This document shows, in pieces, positions 6,351-41,621 of a stretch of DNA of 64,000 nt. The translations under genes and the position numbers were made by a program. The stretch is from Escherichia phage vB_EcoM_P8, in sequence record PV390659.2. One strand, written 5' to 3'. Below the pieces are notes generated by a model, which saw only the letters and a list, made by a program, of their open reading frames with translations, did no database searches and was not told where the DNA came from. Positions within the stretch are counted from its first letter, which is position 1, and every line of letters begins with the position of its first letter.

Positions 6351-6949
6351 AATATTCAGCAATGCAATTAAAAGATTTTAAAATCAAATCAATGGATGCA
6401 TCGGTGCGTGCTTCTATTCGTGAAGAATTACTTTCTGAAGGATTTAATTTATCCGAAATTGAACTTTTAATTCATTGTATTACTAATAAGCCAGACGATC
6501 ATTCTTGGTTAAATGAAATAATCAAATCTCGTTTGGTTCCAAACGATAAACCTCTTTGGAGAGGTGTTCCAGTTGAGACTAAACAGGTGTTAAATCAAGG
6601 AATTGATATTATTACATTTGATAAAGTAGTATCAGCTTCATATGATAAAAATATAGCTCTGCATTTTGCTTCTGGATTAGAATACAACACGCAAGTTATT
6701 TTTGAATTCAAAGCTCCTATGGTATTTAATTTTCAGGAGTATGCTATAAAAGCTCTACGTTGTAAAGAATACAGTCCAAGTTTTAAGTTTCCGGATAGTC
6801 ATCGCTATCGTAATATGGAATTAGTTTCAGATGAACAAGAAGTAATGATACCAGCTGGAAGTGTATTTAGAATTGCAGATAGATATGAGTATAAAAAGTA
6901 TTCAACATACACTATCTATACTCTTGATTTTGAAGGATTTAATCTATAA
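6347..6949 (+). CDS. modA: ADP-ribosyltransferase ModA
   Basis: 200 aa; motifs LWRGV, SASY, EQEVMIP; ATGA overlap with modB. Confidence 0.75.
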   Translation: MKYSAMQLKDFKIKSMDASVRASIREELLSEGFNLSEIELLIHCITNKPDDHSWLNEIIKSRLVPNDKPLWRGVPVETKQVLNQGIDIITFDKVVSASYDKNIALHFASGLEYNTQVIFEFKAPMVFNFQEYAIKALRCKEYSPSFKFPDSHRYRNMELVSDEQEVMIPAGSVFRIADRYEYKKYSTYTIYTLDFEGFNL

Positions 6950-12309: not shown

Positions 12310-12406
12310 AGTTTAAAATTTTTTCATAAAACTATATACATCAGTAGTTGATTATGGTACTATATCAATATCAACTACTGATACAGAAAATAACTTGGAG
12401 AATAAA

Positions 12407-12676
12407 ATGGAAAACTTAATTATCATCGAACAATCTTTCAACGATTATGGTATGGCTTATGGTTATCGTGCGATAATGGAAGATTCTCGTGGATGTGTTA
12501 TCGATATTGCTGAATGTAAAGATTTACTGCAGCTTTTGAAGATTGTTCGCAAAAATTGGGATTGTGAAAACATTAAAGTTCGTGTTGTAACGGAAGAAGA
12601 AACTGTTTTTCATGATGTAAAATTTGCCAAAGGTGCTGCTACTCTTCTGAAACGCATCACTCCAATGTTCAATTAA
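12407..12676 (+). CDS. hypothetical protein
   Basis: 89 aa from ATG 12407 with GGAG SD. Confidence 0.5.
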   Translation: MENLIIIEQSFNDYGMAYGYRAIMEDSRGCVIDIAECKDLLQLLKIVRKNWDCENIKVRVVTEEETVFHDVKFAKGAATLLKRITPMFN

Positions 12677-13332: not shown

Positions 13333-13509
13333 ATGCCAATGTATGATTATAAATGCCAATCCGAAGATTGCGGGCATGAATATGAAAAAATTAAAAAGAT
13401 TTCTGAACGAGAAAATGATGTTTGCCCTAAATGTCATCGTTTGTCTACTCGTCGGCCTTCTGCTCCTAAGCATGTGAATGGTGGATTTTACGACTTACTT
13501 AAAGGGTAA
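13333..13509 (+). CDS. small zinc-ribbon protein (CxxC...CxxC)
   Basis: 58 aa ORF absent from track (<60 aa); AAGGA SD; MPMYDYKCQSEDCGHEYE...CPKCH. Confidence 0.5.
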   Translation: MPMYDYKCQSEDCGHEYEKIKKISERENDVCPKCHRLSTRRPSAPKHVNGGFYDLLKG

Positions 13510-13511: not shown

Positions 13512-13883
13512 ATGTTTAAAATCGGTAAGAAATATCGTGTTCGCGAAGGCAAAGAAAAGAAATATCTACTTTCTTCTATTTATAGGAATAGTTCTATTAA
13601 TACTGTAATATCTACAAGCGAATTTATCGTTGAAGATATGAAAGGTCATAATGTTACAATGATTAGTACAGCATCTGGAAATGATGGAAAAATTCTTCAT
13701 AGTTTTCAGAGTAATGTTCTAATTTATGATGAAGAATTTGACTTCTTCGAAGAAGTTACAGAAGATTTTGATTTTGAATGCACTATCACTATGAAATCTG
13801 GCGACCCTCTTTCTTTTACAGTTAAAGATGAAAGAAGTCGCTTGAGAATTATTAGTCTTCTTCAAGCCATTAAATTTGAGTGA
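13512..13883 (+). CDS. hypothetical protein
   Basis: 123 aa ORF. Confidence 0.55.
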   Translation: MFKIGKKYRVREGKEKKYLLSSIYRNSSINTVISTSEFIVEDMKGHNVTMISTASGNDGKILHSFQSNVLIYDEEFDFFEEVTEDFDFECTITMKSGDPLSFTVKDERSRLRIISLLQAIKFE

Positions 13884-14148
13884 AATTATGAAATATGTTA
13901 ATCGTTCTATCGCGGCATTAGTATTAGCAGTATCTTTAGTAGGATGTACTGATGCTGATAATGCAACCAAAGTTTTGTCTTCAAGTGGGTTTACTAATAT
14001 TGAAATCACTGGATACAATTGGTTTGGTTGCTCTGAAAATGATTTCCAACACACTGGATTTCGTGCTATTGGACCTACTGGGCAGAAAGTAGAAGGAACC
14101 GTGTGTTCTGGTCTATTCTTCAAGGATTCGACTATCCGTTTTAAATAA
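13876..14148 (+). CDS. putative lipoprotein
   Basis: Signal peptide plus lipobox LVGC at residues 21-24; 90 aa; hairpin terminator follows. Confidence 0.55.
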   Translation: MSEIMKYVNRSIAALVLAVSLVGCTDADNATKVLSSSGFTNIEITGYNWFGCSENDFQHTGFRAIGPTGQKVEGTVCSGLFFKDSTIRFK

Positions 14149-14170
14149 AAGGCCTTCGGGCCTTTAGCTT
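14148..14170 (+). terminator. terminator-like hairpin
   Basis: AAAGGCC-TTCG-GGCCTTT; weak U-tract. Confidence 0.4.
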
Positions 14171-14217
14171 TATGATTACCGGAGTATAATATTCCCAAAA
14201 CCAAACGAGGATAAGTG

Positions 14218-16035
14218 ATGATTAAGAATGAAATTAAAATTCTGAGCGATATTGAACATATCAAAAAGCGTAGCGGCATGTACATTGGTTCTTCTGCTAA
14301 TGAAATGCATGAGCGCTTTCTGTTTGGTAAATGGGAAAGTGTTCAGTATGTACCTGGTCTTGTTAAGCTTATTGATGAAATTATCGATAACTCGGTAGAT
14401 GAAGGTATTCGTACTAAGTTTAAATTCGCAAATAAAATTAATGTTACTATCAAAAACAATCAAGTAACAGTTGAAGATAACGGTCGTGGTATTCCACAGG
14501 CGATGGTTAAAACACCTACTGGTGAAGAAATTCCTGGTCCAGTTGCTGCATGGACTATTCCAAAAGCAGGTGGTAACTTTGGTGATGATAAAGAACGCGT
14601 CACTGGCGGTATGAACGGTGTTGGTTCTAGTTTAACTAACATTTTTTCTGTGATGTTTGTCGGTGAAACTGGCGACGGTCAAAATAATATTGTGGTTCGT
14701 TGTTCAAATGGCATGGAAAATAAATCATGGGAAACTATTCCTGGAAAATGGAAAGGAACTCGCGTTACTTTCATTCCTGATTTTATGTCATTTGAAACTA
14801 ATGAGCTATCTCAAGTTTATCTTGACATTACACTAGATCGTCTCCAGACACTTGCAGTAGTTTATCCTGATATTCAATTTACCTTTAATGGTAAAAAGGT
14901 TCAGGGTAATTTTAAGAAATATGCACGCCAATATGATGAACATGCTATCGTTCAAGAACAAGAAAACTGTTCTATTGCGGTTGGTCGTTCACCCGATGGT
15001 TTTCGTCAATTAACATACGTCAATAACATTCATACTAAGAATGGTGGCCATCACATTGACTGTGTTATGGATGATATTTGTGAAGACCTTATTCCACAAA
15101 TCAAACGTAAATTTAAAATTGACGTAACTAAAGCACGTGTTAAAGAATGTTTGACTATCGTTATGTTTGTTCGTGATATGAAAAACATGCGATTTGATTC
15201 TCAAACTAAAGAGCGTCTGACTTCTCCATTTGGTGAAATCCGTAGTCATATTCAGCTTGATGCTAAAAAGATTTCACGTGCTATTTTAAATAATGAAGCA
15301 ATTTTAATGCCAATCATTGAAGCTGCCTTGGCTCGTAAATTGGCGGCAGAAAAAGCAGCAGAAACTAAAGCAGCTAAAAAGGCTTCTAAAGCTAAGGTTC
15401 ATAAACATATTAAAGCGAATCTTTGTGGTAAAGATGCTGACACTACTCTTTTCTTGACTGAGGGTGATTCCGCTATCGGATATCTTATTGATGTTCGTGA
15501 TAAAGAACTTCATGGTGGTTATCCATTACGTGGTAAAGTTCTCAACAGTTGGGGTATGTCATATGCTGATATGCTTAAAAACAAAGAACTGTTTGATATT
15601 TGCGCAATCACTGGATTAGTTCTTGGTGAAAAAGCCGAAAACTTGAATTATCATAATATTGCTATTATGACTGACGCTGACCACGATGGTCTAGGAAGCA
15701 TTTATCCTTCTCTGCTCGGATTTTTCAGTAATTGGCCAGAACTGTTTGAACAAGGAAGAATTCGCTTTGTCAAAACTCCTGTAATCATCGCTCAGGTCGG
15801 TAAAAAACAAGAATGGTTTTATACAGTCGCTGAATATGAGAGTGCTAAAGATGCTCTACCTAAACATAGCATCCGTTATATTAAGGGACTTGGCTCTTTG
15901 GAAAAATCTGAATATCGTGAGATGATTCAAAACCCAGTATATGATGTTGTTAAACTTCCTGAGAACTGGAAAGAGCTTTTTGAAATGCTTATGGGAGATA
16001 ATGCTGATCTTCGTAAAGAATGGATGAGCCAGTAG
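14218..16035 (+). CDS. 39: DNA topoisomerase II large subunit, uninterrupted 39+60 fusion type
   Basis: 605 aa; GHKL ATPase N-terminus MIKNEIKILSDIEH..., Toprim C-terminus ...IAIMTDADHDG...; single ORF. Confidence 0.9.
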   Translation: MIKNEIKILSDIEHIKKRSGMYIGSSANEMHERFLFGKWESVQYVPGLVKLIDEIIDNSVDEGIRTKFKFANKINVTIKNNQVTVEDNGRGIPQAMVKTPTGEEIPGPVAAWTIPKAGGNFGDDKERVTGGMNGVGSSLTNIFSVMFVGETGDGQNNIVVRCSNGMENKSWETIPGKWKGTRVTFIPDFMSFETNELSQVYLDITLDRLQTLAVVYPDIQFTFNGKKVQGNFKKYARQYDEHAIVQEQENCSIAVGRSPDGFRQLTYVNNIHTKNGGHHIDCVMDDICEDLIPQIKRKFKIDVTKARVKECLTIVMFVRDMKNMRFDSQTKERLTSPFGEIRSHIQLDAKKISRAILNNEAILMPIIEAALARKLAAEKAAETKAAKKASKAKVHKHIKANLCGKDADTTLFLTEGDSAIGYLIDVRDKELHGGYPLRGKVLNSWGMSYADMLKNKELFDICAITGLVLGEKAENLNYHNIAIMTDADHDGLGSIYPSLLGFFSNWPELFEQGRIRFVKTPVIIAQVGKKQEWFYTVAEYESAKDALPKHSIRYIKGLGSLEKSEYREMIQNPVYDVVKLPENWKELFEMLMGDNADLRKEWMSQ

Positions 16036-16064
16036 TTTACTTTACCACAAGGATGTGGTATAAT
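16035..16064 (+). promoter_or_regulatory. T4-type early promoter upstream of rIIA.1/rIIA
   Basis: GTTTAC, 18-nt spacer, TATAAT. Confidence 0.55.
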
Positions 16065-16089
16065 TAATTGGGCAAATGAGGACATTGAA

Positions 16090-16293
16090 ATGAAATCATA
16101 CAGAGTAAATTTAGAACTTTTTGATAAAGCAGTTCATCGAGAATATAGAATCATTCAACGCTTTTTCGATATGGGAGAAGCCGAAGAGTTTAAAAACCGC
16201 TTTAAGGATATTAGAGATAAAATTCAATCCGACACCGCAACTAAAGATGAACTACTAGAAGTTGCTGAAGTTATTAAACGCAATATGAATTAA
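16090..16293 (+). CDS. hypothetical protein (rIIA.1 position)
   Basis: 67 aa after early promoter. Confidence 0.5.
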
Positions 16294-16303
16294 TGAGGAA
16301 ATT

Positions 16304-22640: not shown

Positions 22641-23969
22641 ATGCAACTGAATAATCGCGATTTAAAAAGTATCATTGATAATGAAGCATTGGCTTATGCT
22701 ATGTACACGGTTGAAAATCGTGCTATTCCAAATATGATTGATGGATTTAAGCCAGTTCAACGGTTTGTTATTGCTCGAGCCCTTGATTTAGCACGAGGAA
22801 ATAAAGATAAGTTTCACAAACTTGCTTCTATTGCAGGTGGTGTAGCTGACCTCGGATATCATCATGGTGAAAACTCTGCACAAGATGCGGGGGCTTTGAT
22901 GGCTAACACTTGGAATAATAACTTTCCTTTGTTAGATGGTCAAGGAAACTTTGGTTCTCGTACCGTTCAAAAAGCAGCGGCAAGTCGTTATATTTTTGCT
23001 CGTGTAAGTAAAAATTTCTATAGCGTATATAAAGATACTGAATATGCTCCGGTACATCAAGATAAAGAACACATTCCGCCTGCTTTCTATTTGCCTATTA
23101 TTCCTACTGTTCTTCTTAATGGTGTTTCCGGTATTGCAACTGGTTATGCAACTTACATTCTTCCTCATAGTGTTTCTTCTGTCAAGAAAGCTGTACTACA
23201 AGCTCTTCAAGGAAAGAAAGTAACTAAACCGAAGGTAGAATTCCCAGAATTTCGTGGTGAAGTCGTTGAAATTGACGGTCAATATGAAATTCGTGGAACG
23301 TACAAGTTTACTTCACGAACTCAAATGCATATCACTGAGATTCCGTATAAGTATGATCGTGAAACTTATGTGAGTAAAATCTTAGACCCGCTTGAAGATA
23401 AAGGCTTCATTACGTGGGATGATGCTTGTGGTGAGCATGGTTTTGGCTTTAAAATTAAATTCCGCAAAGAATACTCTTTGAGCAATAACGAAGAAGAACG
23501 CCATGCAAAAATTATGAAAGACTTTGGGTTGATTGAGCGTCGTTCCCAAAATATTACAGTCATCAACGAGAAAGGAAAGCTACAAGTTTACGATAACGTA
23601 GTTGATTTAATCAAAGACTTCGTTGAAGTTCGTAAAACTTATGTCCAAAAACGAATTGATAACAAAATCAAAGAAACTGAATCAGCATTTCGTTTAGCCT
23701 TTGCCAAGGCACATTTCATTAAGAAAGTAATTTCAGGTGAAATTGTTGTGCAAGGTAAAACTCGCAAAGAACTGACCGAAGAACTTTCTAAAATTGATAT
23801 GTATTCTTCTTATGTTGATAAACTAGTTGGAATGAATATTTTTCATATGACTTCCGACGAAGCAAAGAAACTTGCTGAAGAAGCTAAAGCTAAAAAAGAA
23901 GAAAACGAATATTGGAAAACTACTGATGTAGTTACAGAATACACCAAAGATTTAGAGGAAATCAAATGA
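22641..23969 (+). CDS. 52: DNA topoisomerase II medium subunit gp52 (GyrA-like)
   Basis: 442 aa; MQLNNRDLKSIIDNEALAYAMYTVENRAIP... matches T4 gp52. Confidence 0.95.
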   Translation: MQLNNRDLKSIIDNEALAYAMYTVENRAIPNMIDGFKPVQRFVIARALDLARGNKDKFHKLASIAGGVADLGYHHGENSAQDAGALMANTWNNNFPLLDGQGNFGSRTVQKAAASRYIFARVSKNFYSVYKDTEYAPVHQDKEHIPPAFYLPIIPTVLLNGVSGIATGYATYILPHSVSSVKKAVLQALQGKKVTKPKVEFPEFRGEVVEIDGQYEIRGTYKFTSRTQMHITEIPYKYDRETYVSKILDPLEDKGFITWDDACGEHGFGFKIKFRKEYSLSNNEEERHAKIMKDFGLIERRSQNITVINEKGKLQVYDNVVDLIKDFVEVRKTYVQKRIDNKIKETESAFRLAFAKAHFIKKVISGEIVVQGKTRKELTEELSKIDMYSSYVDKLVGMNIFHMTSDEAKKLAEEAKAKKEENEYWKTTDVVTEYTKDLEEIK

Positions 23970-25971: not shown

Positions 25972-26173
25972 TTCAAAATCCGATTATTTTAACTCTCTCA
26001 ATGATAAAGATAAAAATCTAATACGGCATTTTATTGTTGAGATGGGATATACTGACACACGTGATTTAAGAGAACATATATTTGAATGTGGTGTAGCTAA
26101 AAAGTTTTCATTCACATGCAAATGTTTAAGAGAGGTAATTCAGCACTATGAACAATTTAGTCGCAAAACATAA
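25955..26173 (+). CDS. hypothetical protein
   Basis: 72 aa. Confidence 0.45.
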   Translation: MAREINSKSDYFNSLNDKDKNLIRHFIVEMGYTDTRDLREHIFECGVAKKFSFTCKCLREVIQHYEQFSRKT

Positions 26174-26256
26174 TTTTAATAAAGCTTCTGTCCATAAAGA
26201 TAAGAAGAAAGCGTTTAAAGAATCTAATCGCAAACAGAAACATAAGGGGAAGGTCT

Positions 26257-26535
26257 ATGATTATTGATTCTCAATCTGTGGTTCAATATACAATCAAAAT
26301 TGATATTCTAGAAAAGCTATATAAGCTTCTACCAAATTTATACCACTCAATTGTTAATGAATTAGTTGAAGAATTACATCTCGAGAATAATGATTTCTTG
26401 GTTGGAACTTATAAAGACCTCTCAAAAGCAGGATATTTTTACGTAATTCCAGCTCCAGGAAAAAGTATTGATGATGTATTAAAAACTATAATGATTTATG
26501 TCCATGATTACGAAATTGAAGATTATTTTGAATGA
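26257..26535 (+). CDS. arn: anti-restriction nuclease protein Arn
   Basis: 92 aa equals T4 Arn length; position upstream of asiA. Confidence 0.65.
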   Translation: MIIDSQSVVQYTIKIDILEKLYKLLPNLYHSIVNELVEELHLENNDFLVGTYKDLSKAGYFYVIPAPGKSIDDVLKTIMIYVHDYEIEDYFE

Positions 26536-26684
26536 GTCATAATCTTGAAATGGTAATCGAGCATAATGTAGCTCAGGAACGTAAGTCGTTCAAGGAATTC
26601 GTAGAAAAAATTTTTGAAGAAAATAACACAGACCAGTTTACAAATCAAGTGTCTGATGATATTATAATAAAGTCAACTAATTGA
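26532..26684 (+). CDS. hypothetical small protein
   Basis: 50 codons, ATGA-coupled. Confidence 0.35.
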   Translation: MSHNLEMVIEHNVAQERKSFKEFVEKIFEENNTDQFTNQVSDDIIIKSTN

Positions 26685-26696
26685 GTGGTATAGTTA

Positions 26697-26969
26697 ATGA
26701 ATAAAAACATTGATACAGTTCGTGAAATTATTACTGTTGCGTCTATTTTGATTAAATTTTCCAGAGAAGATATTGTTGAGAATCGTGCTAATTTTATCGC
26801 ATTTCTGAATGAGATTGGAGTAACGCATGAAGGTAGAAAGTTAAATCAGAATTCATTCCGTAAAATTGTTTCTGAATTAACCCAAGAAGATAAGAAAACC
26901 CTCATCGACGAATTCAACGAGGGTTTTGAGGGTGTATATCGATATCTAGAGATGTATACGAACAAATAA
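26697..26969 (+). CDS. asiA: anti-sigma70 factor AsiA
   Basis: 90 aa MNKNIDTVREIITVASILIKFSREDIVENRANFIAFLNEIGVTHEG... matches T4 AsiA. Confidence 0.9.
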   Translation: MNKNIDTVREIITVASILIKFSREDIVENRANFIAFLNEIGVTHEGRKLNQNSFRKIVSELTQEDKKTLIDEFNEGFEGVYRYLEMYTNK

Positions 26970-27626
26970 TTATTTAGCCCTTCCTAATATTCTGGCCGCC
27001 TGAGAACATATTGATTCAAGGCGGTCATTACTTATATGATCATTTCTATACCAGTACATGGTTATTGTTCCAGCATAGATATTATCCAAGTTAAAATATG
27101 GACAACTGTACATGTAATTTATTTCGGGAGTAGGCTTTTTAGTTGGTAAAAAAGCAAATTTTGAGTTGGAATAATAATGACGTCCATTTAAATGAACTGC
27201 ATATTCATCCATAGTTTTATCAACAGGATATCCTCCAAGTGATTTTTCGCTTATTGTTGAAGGTAATTTTCCTTCATATGCTATAATATCAACAAAATAG
27301 TTTAAGTTTTTAGGGCGGAAAGAATACACCGCACTAAAGTCTGCCTCAGATGATATGTGAACTATCTGGAGTTGTTCCAGGGCGACAGATTCAAAGCGTG
27401 CATTTCTTTCCTTTTCAATAATTTCACTGTATGTTTCATACTTTGATTGCTTATAGTACTCAAAGAAACTATCTCCCCTATACCAAACAATCGCCATTAT
27501 AAACAAAAGAATTACGACAGCTACCCGGGAAGCAAGAACTTTCCCGGTAGCGTTATCTTTGAACAAGCGATCTAGAACACCCAACAGAATATCAGAGGGC
27601 GAAAATGATATTCTAGGTGCTGCCAT
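26970..27626 (-). CDS. t: holin T
   Basis: 218 aa; MAAPRISFSPSDILLGVLDRLFKDNATGKVLASRVAVVILLF... matches T4 holin. Confidence 0.9.
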   Translation of the reverse strand: MAAPRISFSPSDILLGVLDRLFKDNATGKVLASRVAVVILLFIMAIVWYRGDSFFEYYKQSKYETYSEIIEKERNARFESVALEQLQIVHISSEADFSAVYSFRPKNLNYFVDIIAYEGKLPSTISEKSLGGYPVDKTMDEYAVHLNGRHYYSNSKFAFLPTKKPTPEINYMYSCPYFNLDNIYAGTITMYWYRNDHISNDRLESICSQAARILGRAK

Positions 27627-27656
27627 AGACCCTCCTTTTAAGGATATTTATTCAAA

Positions 27657-28433
27657 TTATACTCTTGGACCATATATTGCTCCAACGTTTTGCCACGTTG
27701 GCGTAGACCCTATGACGGCATAACCAGCAGCTCCGCCATCGTATTCATATCCTTGACCACGAATATTACATCTACCTCCTGCGGAGCCAACTTCACCACC
27801 AGACCCGCCGCTATAGATACCGTTCACAGACCCTGCGCCAGGCGCAGAAATAGTACCGGCAGTTGCTCCTGATTGCATATCAATAGATCCGCCCGGCGCG
27901 CCAAACGGACGACCGCCACCACCGCCAAATGTCAATCTCATTTGTGAAAAAGGAGAATAATATCCGCCACCGCCGCCGCCACCGCCGCCAGCAATAGCTC
28001 CGCCATTATTAATTCTTAGTCTCCCACCAATATCATTTTGAATACAATGACCTCCAGCTGAGCCAGGACTATTGCTACCGCCATTCCCGCCACGGCCATA
28101 CATCGTTACACCGTGTATATTCAGTTGAACATATTCATTTGGTGTATCTCCGTACATGAAGAATAAAGGAACATCTTTAGAATATGATACTAAATCTCCG
28201 GTGATATTAAACACTATAGGTGCACTACCTGCCTCAAAACATCTATCTCGGAACCATTGACCATTGAAGTTATGGTCTGCTCCAAGCGTGTGAATTATTT
28301 CAACAGATCGACCTATCATATTACTCATCCAAAACGGAATGCCCATTCTTAATCGTTGGGCCGCGCCACCCATCCAATTTTGTCCTGTATTAACTACTGC
28401 AGACGATCCTACCCACGGTCCTGTTACTGCCAT
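27657..28433 (-). CDS. 38: long tail fiber tip adhesin gp38, T2-type with glycine-rich motifs
   Basis: About 258 aa from ATG 28433; conserved N-terminus; GGGGGGGGG and GGSGG runs separating variable segments. Confidence 0.85.
27780..28100 (-). repeat. glycine-rich (GGN)n coding repeats inside gene 38
   Basis: Runs of GCC/ACC/GCG triplets on plus strand encoding poly-Gly motifs that separate variable segments. Confidence 0.7.
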
Positions 28434-28444
28434 ATAAACCCCCA

Positions 28445-28460
28445 AGGGGCCGAAGCCCCT
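28445..28460 (-). terminator. intergenic hairpin between genes 37 and 38
   Basis: AGGGGC-CGAA-GCCCCT; no clean U-tract on minus strand. Confidence 0.3.
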
Positions 28461-28464
28461 CTTA

Positions 28465-31400
28465 TTATTTTAACAATGATTTAACTAATGCTTTAAGTTC
28501 TTCGATTTCTGATTTAAGTTCTGCAATTTCTGCAGTATGCTCATTGATTGCAGCTGTATTTAAACCAATTACACCGTTATAGTTCAAACGAAGTAAAGCT
28601 TCACCATCAGGGTCACCTTCAACTAATTCAGGTAAAATAGCTTGAACTTCTTGAGCTATCAAACCGGCGTTAGGTTCCCATTTCTGATTTCCTTCTTCAT
28701 CTAGGCCTCGCTTCTGCATATAAGTGTAACCGTTAATTTTAGAAAGCTTCTCAGAAGCATTTTCAAATTTAACAAGGTCTTTTTTAACACGAATATCAGA
28801 ACGGACATAAACATCGCGGACAAATGTGGAATAGGCATCGCTTTGTTGGACTAAATGACCAAAAGAAATAATAGCTCTTCCTTGTTCAGTCCACAAAGCA
28901 CCAGTGGTATCCCAAAGACCTTCATGGAGATGGTAAGCGGACGACCATGAAGCAATATGCATTCCATTTGCAACCATGTTAATACGACCGTCACCGCCAT
29001 GAACTAACCCAGTGTCATTATCACCAATAACAACACATGCGCCTGTCCATGCAGGGTCACCTCCACCAGCTGATATTCTTACTCCAGCTTTAACCATGTC
29101 AGGAACGTACATGTTTCCATTATGGTGGAATTCGAAGATAGCTTGCGGATCGCTAGCATTTTCCTGGTTACCAACACGGATAATAGCCTGAGCCCATTGG
29201 TTAGTGATACGGCGCATACCGAAATCAACACCAGATACGTATCCTTCATTCGTAATAACAGATTTTCCTTTAATAATAGGATAATAGCAGTCATTGCCGA
29301 CGTAGCCAAAATCTACAAATATCGGCGCTTCTTGTCGCCATTGGTTTGCCCAATCGCCAGCTTGGTGCGCAGTCCACTGTGTACCGTTTATATGAAGGCG
29401 GTCTCTATTAAAATTAAATGTTCCTTGACCTTGAGGAGAAAGCGATATTTCGCCGTTATTTGTTATGTATACACCGCCTTGTGTAATGTAACTGTAAAAA
29501 CCTAGACCATTATCGCCGCCGCCTTTGCCTATATACCAGTTACCTGTACCACCTACATCACTACGGATGTGCGATGAAGCACCCACGCCTGCAGTTAAAA
29601 CAAGAGCATCATTGCCTGCCGATAAAGTCAATTTACCGGTCATCGTGTCGCCTTCTTTCGAAACACGAGTCGCAATAGCATCGCGAATATTTGTAGTATC
29701 ACCGGCAGAAGTAAACGGTTTCCAAATATCAGACCAGATATTACCATTTCGAGCAATAGTAGCTTCACCACCACCGACCTGAACGTTATCCGGGAAGTTA
29801 ACAGTACCGTCTTGATTAAAACGAGACGTATGGCCTTGTGATCCATCTTCTTTGATATGGTGTAAAACAAATGTACCCGAATTAATTTCAGTACCTAAAG
29901 ACCAAACCGCTTTACTGTTTAAAAACTTCTGTTTAACAATAGGATAATATTTGTTTATAGCATCATCATCATCAATTTCCTGGAAAATAGGAGCTGCTTG
30001 AACATACTGAATATCATAACCACCAGCGCCTGCACCGTGACCAGTAAATTTAATATAGCCGTTTGCTGCGAACGTATTGTAACTTGATTGTAAATCTGGA
30101 ATAGTAACTTTACCAGTATCTAAAGCCATACTAAACGGGCGAAGTGGACCGATATCGCCATGTTTACCTTCACCGTAAGCAGTTGGAATAATATGAAGAC
30201 TGCCTTCTGAACGTCTAAAAATGGCTCCATAATCTGCATTCCAAATGCGAAGCGCATTCACTGCTCCAGATGAAATTTCGCCTGTTGTGTGAACTCCTCT
30301 ATTTCCAGCAGTAACACCGGATGATTCAAATGAACCATTGACGTTCATTTCTACTTCACCGGTAGTAAGTCTTTGAATATAACTCATCCAGCTAGTTGCG
30401 TCAGAAATTTCCATGACATTTTTACGATTACCTACACTAGGATTAGTAAACGTATTACCCCATACAGAAATTGTCATATTATCAACTGAACTGCTACCAG
30501 TTGTGTTACCTCTAAACATCAGCGTAGAAGCATTATTACGACCATCAATATTAACAGAACCACCAATAACGTCAATATTACCGGGAGTAACTAACAAACC
30601 GCCGTGAGTATTAATGTTTGTAGTACCTTTACCACGGAAATAGTGATGATAATTACCACCTTGATAATAACCTAAAAGAGTCTGACCGTCGCCATACGCG
30701 TTATTATCATGATAAGTAACAACAGTGGCTAATGCATAGTTTTCTGTCGGTGGCGTTGTCATAAGAATCCCATCCGGAGAATAACCCATAACCATTTTTC
30801 TAAGGCTTTGTGTTTCCGCAGGACCGTAAATGAAAGTTCTTGTTCCGTTGTTTACTGTATGAAAATATCCGTCCTGATGCCATTTAAATCCGGTATCATT
30901 ATCACCAAGAGCAATTGAAGCAGTCCCTAATTCAGAATATCCTTTAGAGCCGCCCGGAAGACCTATAGAAATAGAATGGCCTGCTTTCAATCCACCGGAC
31001 CAGGTAAACGACCAAAGATAGGCATCTAACCCGTCACCGGCGTACCAGGTTATCCCGTCGTTATCTTTAACTTCATGGAATATACCAGATCCTACGGCAT
31101 TTCGCATAACACGGAGGTGGTTAATAGCCGTTTCGCTTTCTGCCAACGGAGTGTTATTTGCTAATGAATAGATATCATAATCGCCTGTCTTCTTCCCATT
31201 TGTAATAACTTTATCGGTCAGAATTTGTGGAGACGAAATAGATTTCCATGCTGATACTTCAGGTGAAGTAAATAGGCCACTGCCTGAAAATGCATAGGTG
31301 CTTTCATCACCAGCGGCGTAGTCTTGAACGCGGATATTAACTACTTGCGTAGTTAATCCATCATTAGCCGGGGCATAAATGATTCCACGTTCGCGGCTAT

Positions 31401-31779
31401 TGCCATCGAAAAAACGAACATGCGATGTACCTGAACTTTTTGTAATAAGTTCTCCACCCTCAGTCATAATCTGCCCGGCGGCAATAATATCGCGAGTTAC
31501 TCGAGCAATACCAGTTAAATTGAAATCACCGGTTTGAGTGAAGGTACCATTTAAAGTATAATCACCAGTTTGATTATAGTTTCCTATATGAATAACATTC
31601 CCGTCAATGCTACCGCCTTTAGCAAAACCAAGATCAATGATATTTCCTTGGTCATCTTTAGTAAAAAGTACGCGGTCTTTTAAGTTTATAGCCAATTCAC
31701 CTTCGGCTAATACTGAAGCGGCAGGACGTGCTCCTGCAGTTTTGCTTCTTTTAAATTGTATTTGTTTTAAAGTAGCCAT
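28465..31779 (-). CDS. 37: long tail fiber distal subunit gp37 with C-terminal intramolecular-chaperone-like domain
   Basis: 1104 aa; N-terminus [23 protein letters not shown]...; C-terminus has S-D-x-R-x-K and GLIAQEVQ plus coiled coil. Confidence 0.9.
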
Positions 31780-31787
31780 AAGTCCTC

Positions 31788-32444
31788 TTAATAATAGCCG
31801 AAATCTTGAACAGAATCCTTAATAACAATTTGATCAAATCGTGGAACATGTGAGGGTTGAGATGCAGGATTCTGTGAAAAAAGGTTTGGCGCAGTTAAAT
31901 TTCCTGTCATAGTATCTCCAGAGCGTAATACCCTAGAGTTTGCGTTTGCTGTAACAATATTTATTGCTCCATCAACATAATCTTTCCGTGTAAGGTCATA
32001 ATTATTTACTGGAGATAATGAAGCTGCGCGTATTTGTGATGCTTCAATTACACCCTTTGAGCTAATATCTCCATTTCGCGTGTTAATTACTACAGTTCTA
32101 CCTGCTGTTCCTTGTGATGATTTAAAACCAATACCATACCACGAAACAATATCCATATTTGTAGTATCATACGTGGCATTATCACCAGGACCAGCAAAAA
32201 TACCATTGTCACCTGACCCTGCACCAGGAACAGTCATTCCTTTATTAAAAATTACTTTATTTAAATACGTACCACCATTAGCTTTAGAAACGAAATCGTT
32301 ATCAGTAGCTTGTGGTTTATTATATTCTGAATATATTTTAAATGATTTATAGAGTACATCGTCACCGGCTGGATTCAATGGAAAATTTCCTTGATGCCAA
32401 ATGACAGAGCCTCCAGTTGTTGAACCTACTTTTAAATCAGCCAT
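31788..32444 (-). CDS. 36: long tail fiber distal connector gp36
   Basis: 218 aa; position and size; late promoter upstream. Confidence 0.85.
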   Translation of the reverse strand: MADLKVGSTTGGSVIWHQGNFPLNPAGDDVLYKSFKIYSEYNKPQATDNDFVSKANGGTYLNKVIFNKGMTVPGAGSGDNGIFAGPGDNATYDTTNMDIVSWYGIGFKSSQGTAGRTVVINTRNGDISSKGVIEASQIRAASLSPVNNYDLTRKDYVDGAINIVTANANSRVLRSGDTMTGNLTAPNLFSQNPASQPSHVPRFDQIVIKDSVQDFGYY

Positions 32445-32467
32445 TGTATGCCCCTTTATTTTAATAG

Positions 32468-32475
32468 TATTTATA
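32468..32475 (-). promoter_or_regulatory. late promoter (TATAAATA) for gene 36
   Basis: TATAAATA on minus strand between terminator and gene 36 start. Confidence 0.6.
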
Positions 32476-32501
32476 AAGAAAAAGGGAACCCGAAGGCTCC
32501 C
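32476..32501 (-). terminator. rho-independent terminator between genes 35 and 36
   Basis: On minus strand GGGAGCC-TTCG-GGTTCCC (one G-U pair) followed by UUUUUCUUU. Confidence 0.55.
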
Positions 32502-32506
32502 TCAAT

Positions 32507-33622
32507 TTAAACTTCTCTAAATTCTTGCCCAAACACTTTACCAGTTTTAGACGATGCTTGCGTAGGAAGTACCATTATATCCGGAGGTGAAGCAGATTCA
32601 CAGACATAATTAACTCGAATACCATTGACGCCAAATTCAGCAGGTTTTGAAATTCCGCCATTTCTTGATACTTCAGAAAAGCTTAAATTTCTCATGCCGC
32701 CTTGACCAGCTTGAGCAGTTCTTTGTGCATATATTGTAAATCCTACTGCGTTTTCTGGAATAACTACATAATCTTCCTTTAATTCCCATGACCCAGCTTG
32801 TCCAGTAAACTCAGCATGTGTTGAAGAAATATATCCATTCGATTCATCATAAAAACGGATAGATATATTTGTAGTTCCAAGCGCAAGTAAATCGGCATCA
32901 GCATATAACTGTGCTTTAAGATAAAGAACATCGCCAGGAATTAAATTATAATCAGATAATTTACTTATCGCGGATGAAGTTGGTAAACGTGCAATTTCGT
33001 TATTAGTTCCACCAACCGCTGACATAAATTGCTCAACGCTTTCATATGTTCTTTTAGGAAATCCTGTAGCTCCAACGTCTTCTAAACTATCAAATACAAC
33101 ATCTAAAATAGTTTGATAATCATCTGTGCTTTTTCTATTGCTTAATTTAACATGTTCTAATGCAATAGCTCTTTTAGAAGAAGTGTAAAAAGCAGCATAT
33201 GATACGTCAAATCTTGACAATATAGAATCAGATGGAAAAGCAGACGTTCCTGTGGCTCTTAGCCAAGATACTACCTCAGGAGGAAAATTAACCTTTCCAC
33301 TAGTTAATATAGCAACAAGTCTATTATTCGTCAAAGAGTTCATGAAACCAACAAAAGCAGCTGATGTAGTATCATTTGAAGTCGAAAAAGCATATGACTT
33401 ACTATCAACTAATGCTCCTGTAGAAGGGTCAAAAACTCTTAAATGAAGACCTGTATTAAATGTTTGGCTTCCGATAGGATTATCCTGAAATTTGACATAT
33501 GGTCCTGCTGTAGAAAGCGGGCAAGAACCCGCTATGCTTATTTTATATCTTACTGAATTGCTTTCCGATAAAAATGGCGTTTGGACATATCCTTGTCCAA
33601 ACTCTGCCATAAATTTTTCCAT
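32507..33622 (-). CDS. 35: long tail fiber hinge gp35
   Basis: 371 aa; position and size. Confidence 0.85.
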   Translation of the reverse strand: MEKFMAEFGQGYVQTPFLSESNSVRYKISIAGSCPLSTAGPYVKFQDNPIGSQTFNTGLHLRVFDPSTGALVDSKSYAFSTSNDTTSAAFVGFMNSLTNNRLVAILTSGKVNFPPEVVSWLRATGTSAFPSDSILSRFDVSYAAFYTSSKRAIALEHVKLSNRKSTDDYQTILDVVFDSLEDVGATGFPKRTYESVEQFMSAVGGTNNEIARLPTSSAISKLSDYNLIPGDVLYLKAQLYADADLLALGTTNISIRFYDESNGYISSTHAEFTGQAGSWELKEDYVVIPENAVGFTIYAQRTAQAGQGGMRNLSFSEVSRNGGISKPAEFGVNGIRVNYVCESASPPDIMVLPTQASSKTGKVFGQEFREV

Positions 33623-33630
33623 AATACCTC

Positions 33631-36600
33631 TTATTCAACCCATTCAAATTTAACCGTTTTATTCACTGGGTCAGGAATAATACGAACATTACCAATTCGT
33701 AAGAAATCACGAATAGTAAGATTCCCCATTATAGCATTATCAGATGGTAAAGCACCAATATCAGATGGCTGAGGAGGGTTACCCCCATCAAATACCTGAA
33801 CAAAACTTGACCAAGAGTTTTTAGTTTTCTGCCATGTACGCGTCCAGCGAGTGGTGCGCGCTTCTGGGGTCGTTGGATAAGTAATCCAATCTTGGTAAAG
33901 CGAATCGAGTGTGTTACCAAACTGAGTCAACGTACCAGGAGATTTAACCTCTTCGCCGCGTTCTAAGTATGGAAGACCAGTCACTTCATTAGTTTTTTCA
34001 ACCATCTTAAAATAACCCGGGAATTGGTTATAAGTGGCTGAATCATTAATATCGATTGACCAGAATCCTACAGTATCAGATGTTGGCGCACGAGTATATA
34101 AATCAGAGGTTTTAGTACCCTGAGAACGAATTCTCGAGTTGACAGTTAAACCACCTGAAGTTATAGTAGCACCTTTGGCAATGATTAAGCTTTCACCAAT
34201 TGTAACCTGACCAGATTGATTATTAATAGCTAAAGGACGTAATCCATTAAATCCACCAGTCTGATCGCCAGATGCAGTAAGCATAAAATAGGTGTTAGCA
34301 GCATCATTGCGAATAAAGAATCCATAATCACCGTTTATTGCTCTAAAAGCATTCGACGATTTACTGATAAATTCGCCATTAGCAGTAACTGAACTACCGA
34401 ATGTTGCAACGCCATTCGCATTCAATGTTCCTGAAGCATTCACATTTATCGGTGTTACTGTACCATTAATGCTAAATGCTATATTACCATCTTTATTGCG
34501 TTGAGAATAAAAGTGATAAGATGTGTCATCACTAACTTCAAATACAGTAGAACGTGTTGTATCTGACCCGCCACCAAACTGATTTCCCCAAACTGTGATA
34601 TTCATCGTCTGTGCTGGGTTAGTTCCAGTTTGAGGTCCTTTCTCAAAAATCAGACGAGTTGCTGTTCCAGTATTAGAAATAGTTAATGTGCTATTTGCCG
34701 AAACTGATCCACCAAACGTAGCAGTACTAGATGATACAAGAGGGGCACTCAGATTCGTTTGTTGGGTTAAGGTTAGTGAACCATTAACCGTTTGTGCAAT
34801 ATCCCTACGAATGAACTGAGATGAATCTAGACCATCCAGTAAATTACTATCTACGGCTTTTGCTTTTAACGGCAAATAATTTGCTAATACACGGTTTAAT
34901 TCATATGGCGATACTGCATAGCTATTTTTCTCGTACAATTCTAATGACTGCGTTGAACCAACTGTATCATTACCAACGAATGTAATTGAACCAGATGAAG
35001 TTTTAACAAAACCTCTTACCAGAGTAGTAGCTGCCCAAGTAGGTTCACTCTGCACAATCCATTTTAAATTTTTTGGAGATACAGCAGTATTTGCTGACGT
35101 TCCAGCTACAGTTTCAGACTGAGTTGCAACTTTAATAACGCCTTCCTGTGCTTCAGTAGATTTAGTACCTAAAAGCTTTTTAGGAGTTATTAAAACATTA
35201 TCTAATGTTCCTGCAGCAGCTTCAACTTGTGTAGCTACACGAAGTGTACCACGCTGAGTCTCATTTGCTTCAAGAATATTAAGGGTATAATGGTCCCAGA
35301 GAGTTCCTGATTCAACTAATCCAGATAGAGCAACAACAGAAGTACGATCAGTACTATTAAATCTGGTTTTAATTTTTAATGGTGTAGAGATACGAGTATC
35401 GTCGACGCCTGCGTCGAATTCAACTTGCGTAGCAATTTCAGCTATACCACTTAAACTTTCAGTTGCTTTACGGTCATTTAAAGTTTTAGGAGTGACTGCA
35501 CGGGTATAATCAGTTCCTGTATTAACTTCACTTTGCGTAGCAATTTCAATTAAACCAATTCTTCCATCAGTTGATGTCTTTTTATGTAACGTTTCTGGCG
35601 TTACAACCGCATTTGCCCATCCTTCTTGGCTTTGTCCAGCAATTACTTCACTTTCGACTGCTAGAATTACTGCACCTTGTTGCGTTGGAGTAGCTTTATA
35701 CTGATCCAAAGCTTTAGGCGAAACAACTAAATTATTAGTGTTTTTATTATAAACGTTTGTACCATTTAATTCACGACTAGAAGCTGGAGTAGCTCCTGCA
35801 GTAGATACAAAGGTTACAATACCAGATAATGACTCAGAACCTTGTCGAGCTTGAAGCTTTTTAGGAGTGATGATTGTAGTATCATCAGTACCTGTGTTAG
35901 TTTCTTGCTGCGTCGCAATTTCAGCAACACCTCTACGAGTTTCTGTGGCAGTTCTTTCATTCAGCTTTTTAGGAGTGACGATAATATCATCAGCAAAAGA
36001 GAATGTAGTATCCTGGTTCACTTGGGCAGTAGTTGCTATTCTTGCGATACCTCTACGAGTTTCTGTAGCAGTACGGTTAGCTAATGTTTCTGGTGTAATT
36101 GCTAATTCTTTTTGTGGAGAATTTTCTAAATCGACGTTAGCTTGAGCTTGTGTAGCTAAAGCAATTACGCCTAATCTTGCTCTAGTAGAATCATTTAAAG
36201 AATCAACTCTTTCAACTGTTGGCACGTTTTGCTGCACCACCCAGTATTTTTCATCAGAATCTTCTATATAAGCAAGCTGTAAAACTGGAACATAATTGGT
36301 TTCGCCGTTAAAAACTAATTCTTGAACAGTCACCCATTCAGCTTCAGGTGGATATTCTGAACGTTTTGGGAATTGCAGCAATTGAACTGAAGAAGCAATT
36401 TTATCTTCACCGGCAGCTTTGATTTTAACTGTTTGTCCTTTTCTCATATAATTCATGGAAATTTTAACAGTATCACCAATGGAAATATCGGTTGGAAGCT
36501 GAAGTTCAATTGTTTGGGTTGTTCCGTTATTCGCTCCAAATACCATAACTTCTTCATTTGGACGAATACTAGAATTAGTTGTTATAATACGTAAACGTGC

Positions 36601-37500
36601 TTTACTATCCCCGTCAAACAATCTCCACAATTTTTCATTATCATCATACAACAAGAAACCATCAATCGATGTACGGCCTTCAATGGAATGAGTTCCAACT
36701 TCTTGCACTGAAGTTGTTTCATCGTATGTAGTAACAATTGTATGATAAAGTGGATTTAGTTTATCTAAATCGACGAAATTAATAATATCGCCATGATTAG
36801 CAAATCTCGGAAGTTTAATATTAATCGCCGCGGCTGAAGTAAATCTGCGCACGATAAAATCGTTAGATTGCGCTTGATAAAGACTTGCCGGCGTCACAAC
36901 CACAGCTTCTCTGCTATAATCAGCAACATACATTTGCCACAGACGATTACTAAAAATTAAAACTATCTGCGATTTTGGATGAGTCATTAGTACTGAACGT
37001 ACTTGTTCGCCTCTGAAGTTTACAATACTTTGCACTGGAGCTACAATTAAAACTTGGTTAACACCAGGTTTTCCTCCAATGTCTTGGAGAACGATAGTAT
37101 CTCCATCAATTGGGGAAGATGGTAAAGTAAATGTAATGTCATTACCAGCTGCAGTATCAACTGAAATTGATTCGCCTGACTTTAATTGATAAGGTCCTGA
37201 TGAAACAGTTGTCCAATTAGCATCAGTACGTAATGCTCTCCAACGCACGCTATTAAAAGCTCCTGCTGGTTTTGGAATATCATTTATAGCAGCCCAAAAG
37301 CGGTTATCATAAATGATTACAAAATCTTTTAAATATCCACGAGTTGGATCGTATTGTTGAACTGTGTTTTCTTGAATTAAGTAATCAACGTTAACACCGT
37401 CAGTTCCTACGGTACGATCAGCTAAAGCTACGTTGATTATTTTATCGCCACCTGCGTCCAGACCGTCTTCTGCTCTGAACTTTCTTTTAATCTCGGCCAT
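33631..37500 (-). CDS. 34: long tail fiber proximal subunit gp34
   Basis: 1289 aa equals T4 gp34 length; MAEIKRKFRAEDGLDAGGDKIINVALADRT...; internal TPKKL..ATE..G.AEIAT repeats. Confidence 0.95.
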   Translation of the reverse strand: MAEIKRKFRAEDGLDAGGDKIINVALADRTVGTDGVNVDYLIQENTVQQYDPTRGYLKDFVIIYDNRFWAAINDIPKPAGAFNSVRWRALRTDANWTTVSSGPYQLKSGESISVDTAAGNDITFTLPSSPIDGDTIVLQDIGGKPGVNQVLIVAPVQSIVNFRGEQVRSVLMTHPKSQIVLIFSNRLWQMYVADYSREAVVVTPASLYQAQSNDFIVRRFTSAAAINIKLPRFANHGDIINFVDLDKLNPLYHTIVTTYDETTSVQEVGTHSIEGRTSIDGFLLYDDNEKLWRLFDGDSKARLRIITTNSSIRPNEEVMVFGANNGTTQTIELQLPTDISIGDTVKISMNYMRKGQTVKIKAAGEDKIASSVQLLQFPKRSEYPPEAEWVTVQELVFNGETNYVPVLQLAYIEDSDEKYWVVQQNVPTVERVDSLNDSTRARLGVIALATQAQANVDLENSPQKELAITPETLANRTATETRRGIARIATTAQVNQDTTFSFADDIIVTPKKLNERTATETRRGVAEIATQQETNTGTDDTTIITPKKLQARQGSESLSGIVTFVSTAGATPASSRELNGTNVYNKNTNNLVVSPKALDQYKATPTQQGAVILAVESEVIAGQSQEGWANAVVTPETLHKKTSTDGRIGLIEIATQSEVNTGTDYTRAVTPKTLNDRKATESLSGIAEIATQVEFDAGVDDTRISTPLKIKTRFNSTDRTSVVALSGLVESGTLWDHYTLNILEANETQRGTLRVATQVEAAAGTLDNVLITPKKLLGTKSTEAQEGVIKVATQSETVAGTSANTAVSPKNLKWIVQSEPTWAATTLVRGFVKTSSGSITFVGNDTVGSTQSLELYEKNSYAVSPYELNRVLANYLPLKAKAVDSNLLDGLDSSQFIRRDIAQTVNGSLTLTQQTNLSAPLVSSSTATFGGSVSANSTLTISNTGTATRLIFEKGPQTGTNPAQTMNITVWGNQFGGGSDTTRSTVFEVSDDTSYHFYSQRNKDGNIAFSINGTVTPINVNASGTLNANGVATFGSSVTANGEFISKSSNAFRAINGDYGFFIRNDAANTYFMLTASGDQTGGFNGLRPLAINNQSGQVTIGESLIIAKGATITSGGLTVNSRIRSQGTKTSDLYTRAPTSDTVGFWSIDINDSATYNQFPGYFKMVEKTNEVTGLPYLERGEEVKSPGTLTQFGNTLDSLYQDWITYPTTPEARTTRWTRTWQKTKNSWSSFVQVFDGGNPPQPSDIGALPSDNAIMGNLTIRDFLRIGNVRIIPDPVNKTVKFEWVE

Positions 37501-38799: not shown

Positions 38800-39115
38800 T
38801 ATTCGTCCGGTCGATGAGACCGGTCTTTCAGAAAAAGAACTTTCAATTAAGAAAGAAAAGGATGAAATAGCAAAGCTTCTTGACCGCCAAGAAAATGGAT
38901 TTATTATTGAAAAAATGGTAGAAGAGTTTGGAATGAGTTATCTTGAAGCTACAACAGCATTCTTGGAAGAAAATTCTATTCCTGAAACTCAATTTGCTAA
39001 ATTTATTCCTTCGGGTATAATTGAAAAAATTCAGTCAGAAGCTATTGACGAAAATCTTTTACGTCCTTCTGTTGTTCGTTGTGAAAAAACTAATACATTA
39101 GATTTTCTACTATGA
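38777..39115 (+). CDS. 33: late transcription co-activator gp33
   Basis: 112 aa MTQFSLNDIRPVDETGLSEKELSIKKEKDEIAKLL... matches T4 gp33. Confidence 0.85.
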   Translation: MTQFSLNDIRPVDETGLSEKELSIKKEKDEIAKLLDRQENGFIIEKMVEEFGMSYLEATTAFLEENSIPETQFAKFIPSGIIEKIQSEAIDENLLRPSVVRCEKTNTLDFLL

Positions 39116-39765
39116 TTAAACTCCGCATGCCTGCTGGTGGTGAAAGATACATTGATGGTAAATCAGTTTATAAATTATACTTAATGATAAAACAACATAT
39201 GAATGGAAAGTATGATGTAATTAAGTATAATTGGTGCATGCGGGTGTCTGATGCCGCTTATCAAAAGCGAAGGGATAAGTATTTTTTCCAGAAGTTATCA
39301 GAAAAATATAAATTAAAGGAACTTGCTTTAATCTTTATAAGCAATCTTGTTGCTAACCAAGATGCTTGGATTGGTGACATCTCTGACGCTGATGCACTTG
39401 TGTTTTATCGTGAATATATCGGACGCTTAAAGCAAATTAAATTTAAGTTTGAAGAAGATATTCGCAACATTTATTATTTTAGTAAAAAAGTTGAAGTTTC
39501 TGCTTTTAAAGAAATCTTTGAGTATAATCCAAAAGTTCAATCAAGTTATATTTTTAAACTACTTCAATCGAATATAATTTCGTTTGAGACGTTTATCTTG
39601 CTTGATTCGTTTTTAAATATAATCGATAAACATGATGAACAGACTGATAATTTAGTCTGGAATAATTATTCTATAAAGTTAAAGGCTTATAGAAAAATTT
39701 TAAATATTGATTCGCAGAAAGCTAAAAGTGTTTTCATTGAAACTGTGAAATCCTGCAAGTATTAA
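39112..39765 (+). CDS. 59: helicase loader gp59
   Basis: 217 aa MIKLRMPAGGERYIDGKSVYKLYL... matches T4 gp59. Confidence 0.9.
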   Translation: MIKLRMPAGGERYIDGKSVYKLYLMIKQHMNGKYDVIKYNWCMRVSDAAYQKRRDKYFFQKLSEKYKLKELALIFISNLVANQDAWIGDISDADALVFYREYIGRLKQIKFKFEEDIRNIYYFSKKVEVSAFKEIFEYNPKVQSSYIFKLLQSNIISFETFILLDSFLNIIDKHDEQTDNLVWNNYSIKLKAYRKILNIDSQKAKSVFIETVKSCKY

Positions 39766-39773
39766 TTGCTTAT

Positions 39774-39781
39774 TATAAATA
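39774..39781 (+). promoter_or_regulatory. candidate late promoter upstream of gene 32
   Basis: TATAAATA about 85 nt upstream of gene 32 ATG. Confidence 0.4.
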
Positions 39782-39798
39782 GATTATAATTATCTCAC

Positions 39799-39864
39799 TG
39801 ACCAGCTATGAGGTCATACATCGTCATAGCACCAACTGTTAATTAAATTAAAAAGGAAATAAAA
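39799..39864 (+). promoter_or_regulatory. gene 32 translational operator: H-type pseudoknot plus AU-rich leader
   Basis: GACC(39800-03)/GGTC(39812-15) and GCTATGA(39805-11)/TCATAGC(39824-30) interleaved stems, then AT-rich run to ATG 39865. Confidence 0.7.
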
Positions 39865-40773
39865 ATGTTTAAACGTAAATCTACTGCTGAACTCGCTGCA
39901 CAAATGGCTAAACTGGCTGGAAATAAAGGTGGTTTTTCTTCTGAAGATAAAGGCGAGTGGAAACTGAAACTCGATAATGCGGGTAACGGTCAAGCAGTAA
40001 TTCGTTTTCTTCCGTCTAAAAATGATGAACAAGCACCATTCGCAATTCTTGTAAATCACGGTTTCAAGAAAAATGGTAAATGGTATATTGAAAACTGTTC
40101 ATCTACCCACGGTGATTACGATTCTTGCCCAGTATGTCAGTACATCAGTAAAAATGATTTGTACAACACTGACAATAAAGAGTATGGTCTTGTTAAACGT
40201 AAAACTTCTTACTGGGCTAACATTCTTGTTGTAAAAGACCCAGCTGCTCCAGAAAATGAAGGTAAAGTATTTAAATATCGTTTCGGTAAGAAAATCTGGG
40301 ATAAAATCAACGCAATGATTGCAGTTGATGTTGAAATGGGTGAAACCCCAGTTGATGTAACTTGTCCGTGGGAAGGTGCTAACTTTGTACTGAAAGTTAA
40401 ACAAGTTTCTGGTTTTAGTAACTACGACGAATCTAAATTCCTGAATCAATCTGCGATTCCAAACATTGATGATGAATCTTTCCAGAAAGAACTGTTCGAA
40501 CAAATGGTTGACCTTTCTGAAATGACTTCTAAAGATAAATTCAAATCGTTTGAAGAACTGAGCACTAAGTTCAGTCAAGTTATGGGAACTGCTGCTATGG
40601 GTGGTGCCGCTGCAACTGCCGCTAAGAAAGCTGATAAAGTTGCTGATGATTTGGATGCATTCAATGTTGATGACTTCAAAACAAAAACTGAAGATGATTT
40701 TATGAGCTCAAGCTCTGGCAGTTCATCTAGTGCTGATGACACGGACCTGGATGACCTTTTGAATGACCTTTAA
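39865..40773 (+). CDS. 32: single-stranded DNA-binding protein gp32
   Basis: [17 protein letters not shown]...; acidic Ser-rich C-terminus; upstream pseudoknot operator. Confidence 0.95.
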
Positions 40774-40795
40774 TAGATTATATTACTAATTAATT

Positions 40796-40819
40796 GGGGA
40801 CCCTAGAGGTCCCCTTTTT
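40796..40819 (+). terminator. rho-independent terminator after gene 32
   Basis: GGGGACC-CTAGA-GGTCCCC followed by TTTTT. Confidence 0.75.
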
Positions 40820-40844
40820 ATTTCAAAATTTTTTTCACAAAACT

Positions 40845-40874
40845 GTTTACATCTCTGTTCTTCCATGGTACTAT
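40845..40874 (+). promoter_or_regulatory. T4-type early promoter
   Basis: GTTTAC, 18-nt spacer, TACTAT. Confidence 0.55.
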
Positions 40875-40917
40875 ACAACTATCGGCAATACTGCTGACGA
40901 TTAAAGAGGAAAATAAT

Positions 40918-41145
40918 ATGGCTAAAGTTGATATTGACATCGTTGATTTTGAATATATTGAAGAAATTATTCGTAATCGTTATCCTGAACTTAGTATCAC
41001 AAGCGTACAAGATTCTAAGTTTTGGAGTATTCAAATCGTTATTGAAGGTCCTCTTGAAAACCTCACCCGCTTTATGGCTAATGAATACTGTGATGGTATG
41101 GATTCTGAAGACGCAGAATTTTACATGGGACTGATTGAACAATAA
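40918..41145 (+). CDS. hypothetical acidic protein (not a GIY-YIG segG)
   Basis: 75 aa with AGAGGAAAAT SD after early promoter. Confidence 0.5.
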
Positions 41146-41180
41146 CTATCAAGCCCCCTATCAAAATGAGGAAAATCAAA

Positions 41181-41567: not shown

Positions 41568-41596
41568 TTTACAGAAGGGTAGTAGTGTGATACTAT
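41567..41596 (+). promoter_or_regulatory. T4-type early promoter
   Basis: GTTTAC, 18-nt spacer, TACTAT. Confidence 0.5.
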
Positions 41597-41621
41597 TACC
41601 CTATCAACTAAGGAGAATAAA

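Follow-up and report, generated by a model that had tools for sequence, protein, structure and literature searches.

The topoisomerases of T-even phages relax DNA without supercoiling it. Bacterial GyrB and ParE and the N-terminal half of eukaryotic Top2 have the same architecture of GHKL ATPase, transducer and TOPRIM domains as the phage large subunit, whereas the phage enzyme is only distantly related to them and has a separate short A-type subunit, gp52. In T4 the large subunit is divided between a gp39 of 516 aa, which carries a 43-aa foreign tail, and a gp60 of 160 aa, which carries a 30-aa foreign head, and ribosomes hop over 50 nt. Manning and Atkins described the one-piece gene as parental and traced the T4 split to a mobile insertion (bioRxiv 10.1101/2022.08.31.505936). 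According to these authors the element combines a 64-nt deletion with an insertion after codon 473, extends in the E. coli clade to 9 nt past the landing codon and includes a homologous region with 67-81% identity (bioRxiv 10.1101/2022.08.31.505936). A one-piece gene 39 is already known from T2, T6 and most Tequatroviruses and was described in Bonocora 2011 (via Manning & Atkins 2022) and in Nat Commun 2024. For T6, the structure of the Topo II-DNA complex with gp39 is available (PDB 8YLU; Nat Commun 2024, PMC11461880), and the enzyme relaxes DNA in assays and is inhibited by m-AMSA (PMC11461880).

Here, we analyzed a 64-kb stretch of phage DNA, referred to as the window. Its gene 39 is almost certainly the standard one-piece gene of a T2/T6-type Tequatrovirus, which encodes the ATP-binding, DNA-gate subunit, lacks the MobA cassette and retains an empty homing site.

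Reading frame and product of gene 39

The gene, its likely expression signals and the gene of its partner subunit are located as follows.

14150-14210, plus strand: likely expression signals of gene 39, read from the sequence
14218-16035, plus strand: gene 39, DNA topoisomerase II large (GyrB/ParE-like) subunit, 605 aa and stop
22641-23969, plus strand: gene 52, GyrA/ParC-like partner, 442 aa (Pfam DNA_topoisoIV PF00521, 259.8 bits, residues 27-429)

Gene 39 forms a single ORF from the ATG at 14218 to 16035, and both the ORF list and the translation give 605 codons with the sole stop at the end. At about 36% G+C, 605 open codons are far beyond chance. The ATG is preceded by GAGG at 14207-14210 with a spacing of 7 nt and leads to the N-terminus MIKNEIK, which is common to the gp39 of T4, T2 and T6; an alternative GTG at 14215 lies in frame and would add one codon. 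The first-pass annotation had claimed one ORF of this extent with an unbroken junction at about 15640-15700, and its coordinates, length and quoted peptide proved right in the translation. The peptide NLNYHNIAIMTDADHDG represents residues 475-491 (codons 15640-15690) and runs on into LGSIYPSLL without a break. Read codon by codon, positions 15601-15760 give ...GLVLGEKAENLNYHNIAIMTDADHDGLGSIYPSLLGFFSNWPELFEQGR... in a single frame throughout. An unnoticed frameshift or internal stop, which had been named as the observation that would speak against continuity, was looked for in this reading and is absent from 15600-15750.

Among PDB entries the best match of the product was chain C of 8YLU, aligned over residues 1-605 in one stretch with 604/605 identical positions. 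This chain is the 605-aa gp39 of T6 (YP_010067157.1; PDB 8YLU, 8YO1, 8YO5, 8YO7, 8YOD, 8YON), which also shares the domain order, the catalytic residues and the gp52 partner. The one difference concerns residue 526, which is Q in the window protein and in T4 but H in the T6 chain 8YLU. An N-terminal GHKL ATPase domain is present (Pfam HATPase_c, residues 47-149, 38.4 bits with a cut-off of 26.4), and a crystal chain of the T6 ATPase domain, 9IMJ, aligns with residues 1-380. The transducer follows at residues 250-384 (Pfam PF00204 DNA_gyraseB, 51.1 bits, cut-off 27). Further downstream the Pfam model TOPRIM_C matched with 30.7 bits (cut-off 29), the core Toprim Pfam model gave no match to the product at E <= 0.001, and the metal-binding E...DxD motif is present as E415, D486 and D488. 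The same three residues bind metal in T6, where R438, K440, D490 and K556 contact the DNA (PMC11461880), and all seven are found in the window protein. Moreover, PHROG 543 'DNA topoisomerase II large subunit' spans residues 1-605, and the same gene is annotated as 'DNA topoisomerase large subunit' in the genome of phage BMB16. Human TOP2A/B and bacterial ParE were aligned in a single stretch over approximately residues 6-603 (E values of 1e-36 to 1e-59). Therefore, collinearity of the product with the type IIA enzymes of cells extends across the region at which T4 is split.

The partner gene 52 lies 6.6 kb downstream of gene 39 and is labelled 'DNA topoisomerase' in BMB16. Two gp39 and two gp52 would assemble into an A2B2 type IIA topoisomerase. 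With ATP, this enzyme would carry one duplex across a transient double-strand break in another during phage replication. We infer the ATP-dependent strand passage by gp39 from the active T6 protein, to which it is identical at 604/605 residues.

The junction compared with T4 and T2

The window DNA was compared by blastn with the 39/mobA/60.1/60 region of T4 (NC_000866, 2458-5328). Three segments aligned, and gene 39 can be divided at their borders.

Window 14150-15635, T4 5396-3911: 95.8% identity
Window 15644-15689 (46 nt), T4 2899-2854: 80.4% identity, the homologous region borne by the insert
Window 15700-16100, T4 2793-2393: 98.0% identity

14218-15635, plus strand: part collinear with T4 gene 39, codons 1-473, with ATPase, transducer and start of TOPRIM (blastn, protein alignment)
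15636-15699, plus strand: empty site of 64 nt, residues 474-494 including the TOPRIM DxD motif (T4 identity breaks at 15635/15636 and resumes at 15700)
15688-15699, plus strand: Gly491 GGT, followed by CTA GGA AGC (codon reading, alignment with T4 2853-2793)
15700-16035, plus strand: part collinear with gene 60 after the bypass, C-terminal TOPRIM region (blastn, protein alignment)

At the protein level, residues 1-473 are identical to T4 gp39 1-473 at 465/473 positions. A local alignment paired residues 472-605 with gp60 27-160 (128/134 identical), in which homology begins at window residue 476, equivalent to gp60 residue 31, and residues 492-605 are identical to gp60 47-160. The ORF thus covers both T4 genes, as had been proposed, with 1-473 corresponding to gp39 and 476-605 to gp60 31-160. 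No counterpart of T4 gp39 474-516 or gp60 1-30 was found in the window protein by protein alignment. The 64 nt at 15636-15699 stand against 1117 nt in T4 (3910-2794). This stretch of T4 comprises the mobA pseudogene as well as 60.1, the foreign extensions of gp39 (tail) and gp60 (head), the 50-nt gap and a diverged version of the segment that was replaced. Where the gap lies, T4 reads GAT GGA TAG ...(50 nt)... GGA TTA GGT, whereas the window reads GAT GGT CTA GGA AGC; after 15690, where the coding gap of T4 would lie, the take-off GGA, the UAG and the gap are all missing. The boundaries between window and T4 agree with the published anatomy of the element. The alignment with T4 that the first-pass annotation had suggested as a check has thus been carried out and gave collinear flanks without the mobA/60.1 region and without the 50-nt gap.

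In the alignment with T2 gene 39 (AP018813.1, 2447-4264), the second check suggested, the two genes have the same length of 1818 nt and align without gaps. They share 95.7% DNA identity, and the 78 nt differences are mostly silent, so that the proteins are identical at 603/605 residues and differ at residues 70 and 173. The position of the gene is also the same, with a 39.1-like ORF on one side and rIIA.1/rIIA on the other. Within the 64-nt zone T2 and the window differ at three synonymous sites (gene nt 1419, 1458 and 1467).

The mobA gene of T4 is itself a pseudogene; intact MobA is known from relatives, HY01 among them. The HY01 protein of 272 aa served as the query in a tblastn search of the whole window, and no homologue was detected in the 64 kb (best E = 1.3). 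In a blastn-short search the T4 50-nt bypass sequence found matches of 12 nt at most anywhere in the window. The claim that both mobA and the bypass element are absent is borne out by these searches, which also found neither of them relocated elsewhere in the window. Inside gene 39 there is no room for mobA since only 64 nt are available here compared with 1117 nt in T4.

As gene 39 lacks the MobA cassette, 15636-15699 would represent an intact empty homing site. Nicking by MobA and homing of the cassette were shown with T2 as recipient (Bonocora 2011, as cited in bioRxiv 10.1101/2022.08.31.505936), and the nick reportedly falls about 20 nt upstream of the gap position, as far as described there (bioRxiv 10.1101/2022.08.31.505936). 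By analogy to this literature, 15636-15699 is the expected MobA homing and nick region and should be susceptible. A co-infecting phage with active MobA, such as HY01, T4T or similar phages, would be expected to nick within the 64-nt segment, near window position 15670. Repair after the nick would then copy the cassette in and create the split form, with 39, mobA and a gene 60 with bypass. The 50-nt gap would subsequently shield the new host DNA from MobA. There is a slim chance that the empty site found here is a MobA-resistant variant, as it carries the three silent differences from T2, the only substrate tested, and two of the three lie within approximately 15 nt of the reported nick site. 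If true, silent changes that block nicking would provide an immunity independent of the cassette and might help to explain why about 90% of the relatives are uninvaded.

Frequency and origin of the one-piece gene

A 261-nt junction probe was compared with matching phage records, in which a junction was considered continuous when at least 80% of the probe was covered in one place. This was the case in 454/498 matching phage records. The 1117-nt T4 element was found in only 43 records, which comprise T4 isolates, RB55, RB59, HY01, HY03 and some others. The counts agree, as 498 - 454 leaves 44 records versus 43 with the cassette; partial sequence entries of T4 are among the remainder. Therefore, the unsplit gene 39 is the rule (about 90%) and the T4 arrangement the exception. 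The window corresponds in essence to Escherichia phage vB_EcoM_BMB16 (PV102577.1, Tequatrovirus), which is 100% identical over the 2.3 kb around gene 39 (14000-16300) and shows three mismatches in 50,000 nt over window 14001-64000. Nearly 500 further T4-like phages match the same 2.3 kb with 95-99% identity.

The continuous gene could be explained in other ways. A frameshift, stop or recoding signal concealed at 15600-15750, which would make it an artefact or a pseudogene, has a practically negligible probability. Translation of 15601-15760 in a single frame and without a stop excludes a hidden frameshift or stop, the full-length alignments with the proteins of T6, T2 and T4 are gapless, and BMB16, which was deposited independently, has no more than one mismatch over 10.3 kb spanning gene 39. 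The opposite order of events, in which separate genes 39 and 60 were ancestral and became joined in this lineage, draws on the wording 'gene-fusion or gene-separation', which was left open in Nat Commun 2024 (PMC11461880). However, GyrB/ParE and eukaryotic Top2 are unbroken at this point, a mobile element that carries an HNH endonuclease marks the boundaries of the T4 split, and six clades hold near-identical genomes with and without the element (bioRxiv 10.1101/2022.08.31.505936). We consider a true fusion extremely improbable. The earlier description of the locus as the unsplit state stands, although this state is nothing special and is shared by 454/498 records. The term 'fusion type' does not stand, since the one-piece gene is parental and T4 was split by a mobile insertion.

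A somewhat better, though still very unlikely, candidate is secondary restoration, that is, a cassette-bearing ancestor that regained the one-piece gene by recombination with the empty allele of a co-infecting phage. T-even phages recombine freely, 'hit and run' clades have lost endonuclease and bypass (bioRxiv 10.1101/2022.08.31.505936), and a clean gene conversion leaves no trace. Nevertheless, lineages with documented loss retain C- and N-terminal extensions derived from the insert (bioRxiv 10.1101/2022.08.31.505936), whereas the window protein is gapless against T2 and T6 and remnants of the foreign extensions are absent. Besides, the 64-nt segment belongs to the parental type and shares only 80% identity with the copy borne by the T4 insert, and empty alleles outnumber filled ones by about 10:1. 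Nothing requires such a restoration, and the standard one-piece gene, against which no observation speaks, is the preferred reading. Taken alone, the one-piece gene 39 matters little and its value lies in the context. With respect to the MobA/bypass cassette the genome is a 'naive' recipient, and such genomes are natural controls in studies of homing and of how the gene 60 bypass arose.

Flanking signals and neighboring genes

Upstream of gene 39, a hairpin with a UUCG loop (AGGCC-TTCG-GGCCT) was found at 14150-14163. It is followed by TAGCTTTA at 14165-14172 and, after 12 nt, by TATAAT at 14185-14190. Compared with the known T4 promoter architecture, TAGCTTTA and TATAAT likely resemble a MotA-dependent middle promoter. 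In the sigma-70 scan this site was not called as a promoter; within the scanned region nine sigma-70-like promoters were counted versus 9.1 in shuffled sequence, and no terminators were detected. The hairpin shares with the take-off stem-loop of T4 gene 60 a 10-nt core, GCCTTCGGGC (14152-14161; blastn-short), which is a striking identity. It was the one 10-nt hit of note, and an interpretation as a remnant of the bypass was rejected because the hairpin is a common stable UUCG-tetraloop motif. In T-even intergenic regions UUCG-tetraloops are common as stabilisers or terminators, and the GCCTTCGGGC hairpin is probably one of these. At gathering thresholds Rfam gave no hit in the whole window; thus, no structured RNA element was associated with gene 39.

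On the other side of the gene, the strongest sigma-70-like site of the scanned region is located at 16036-16064 (TTTACT, 17 nt, TG, TATAAT; 10/12). It starts right after the stop of gene 39 and ahead of rIIA.1 (16090-16293). Its sequence suggests an early promoter that serves rIIA.1/rIIA.

The gene order is that of a classical T-even phage and runs, as the reverse complement of the T4 record, from motB, cef, goF, a 39.2-like zinc ribbon and two small ORFs through gene 39 to rIIA.1, rIIA (725 aa) and rIIB (312 aa). T4 has the same neighborhood, with goF, cef and 39.2 upstream, rIIA.1, rIIA and rIIB downstream and flanks of 96-98% DNA identity. Some small ORFs differ from T4. The interval 13512-14148, which separates gene 39 from the 39.2-like zinc-ribbon gene (13333-13509), holds a 123-aa ORF (phrog_622, weakly goF-like) and an 86-aa ORF (phrog_902) whose lipoprotein-like signal ends in VGC. 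In the matching interval of T4 only the 66-aa 39.1 is annotated, and T2 and HY01 carry an ORF of 86/87 aa. Another ORF of 93 aa (phrog_3720, unknown function) lies at 12395-12676 between the motB-like and cef-like genes, where the matching T4 interval (6483-6652) has no annotated gene.

Further mobile elements of T4 were looked for in the window stretch 39112-48160. The td gene (43248-44108) is one ORF of 286 aa with a full thymidylate synthase profile and has neither the td intron nor I-TevI. Similarly, nrdB (46982-48160) is one ORF of 392 aa without intron and I-TevIII. The spacing of 51 nt between nrdA and nrdB leaves out mobE, and the 99 nt between genes 59 and 32 leave out segG. Rfam at gathering thresholds detected neither a group I intron nor a tRNA in the whole window. 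Together with the MobA cassette, the td and nrdB introns, mobE and segG make five T4 mobile elements that were checked in this stretch and are missing from this T4 relative.

At 26000-37000 the GC skew switches its sign and the G+C content rises to about 0.40-0.42 over late genes on the minus strand. In the BMB16 annotation these comprise the long tail fibre genes 34-37, gene 38 and the holin. The change in skew and G+C is in line with the switch of strands between early and late genes that is known from T-even phages.
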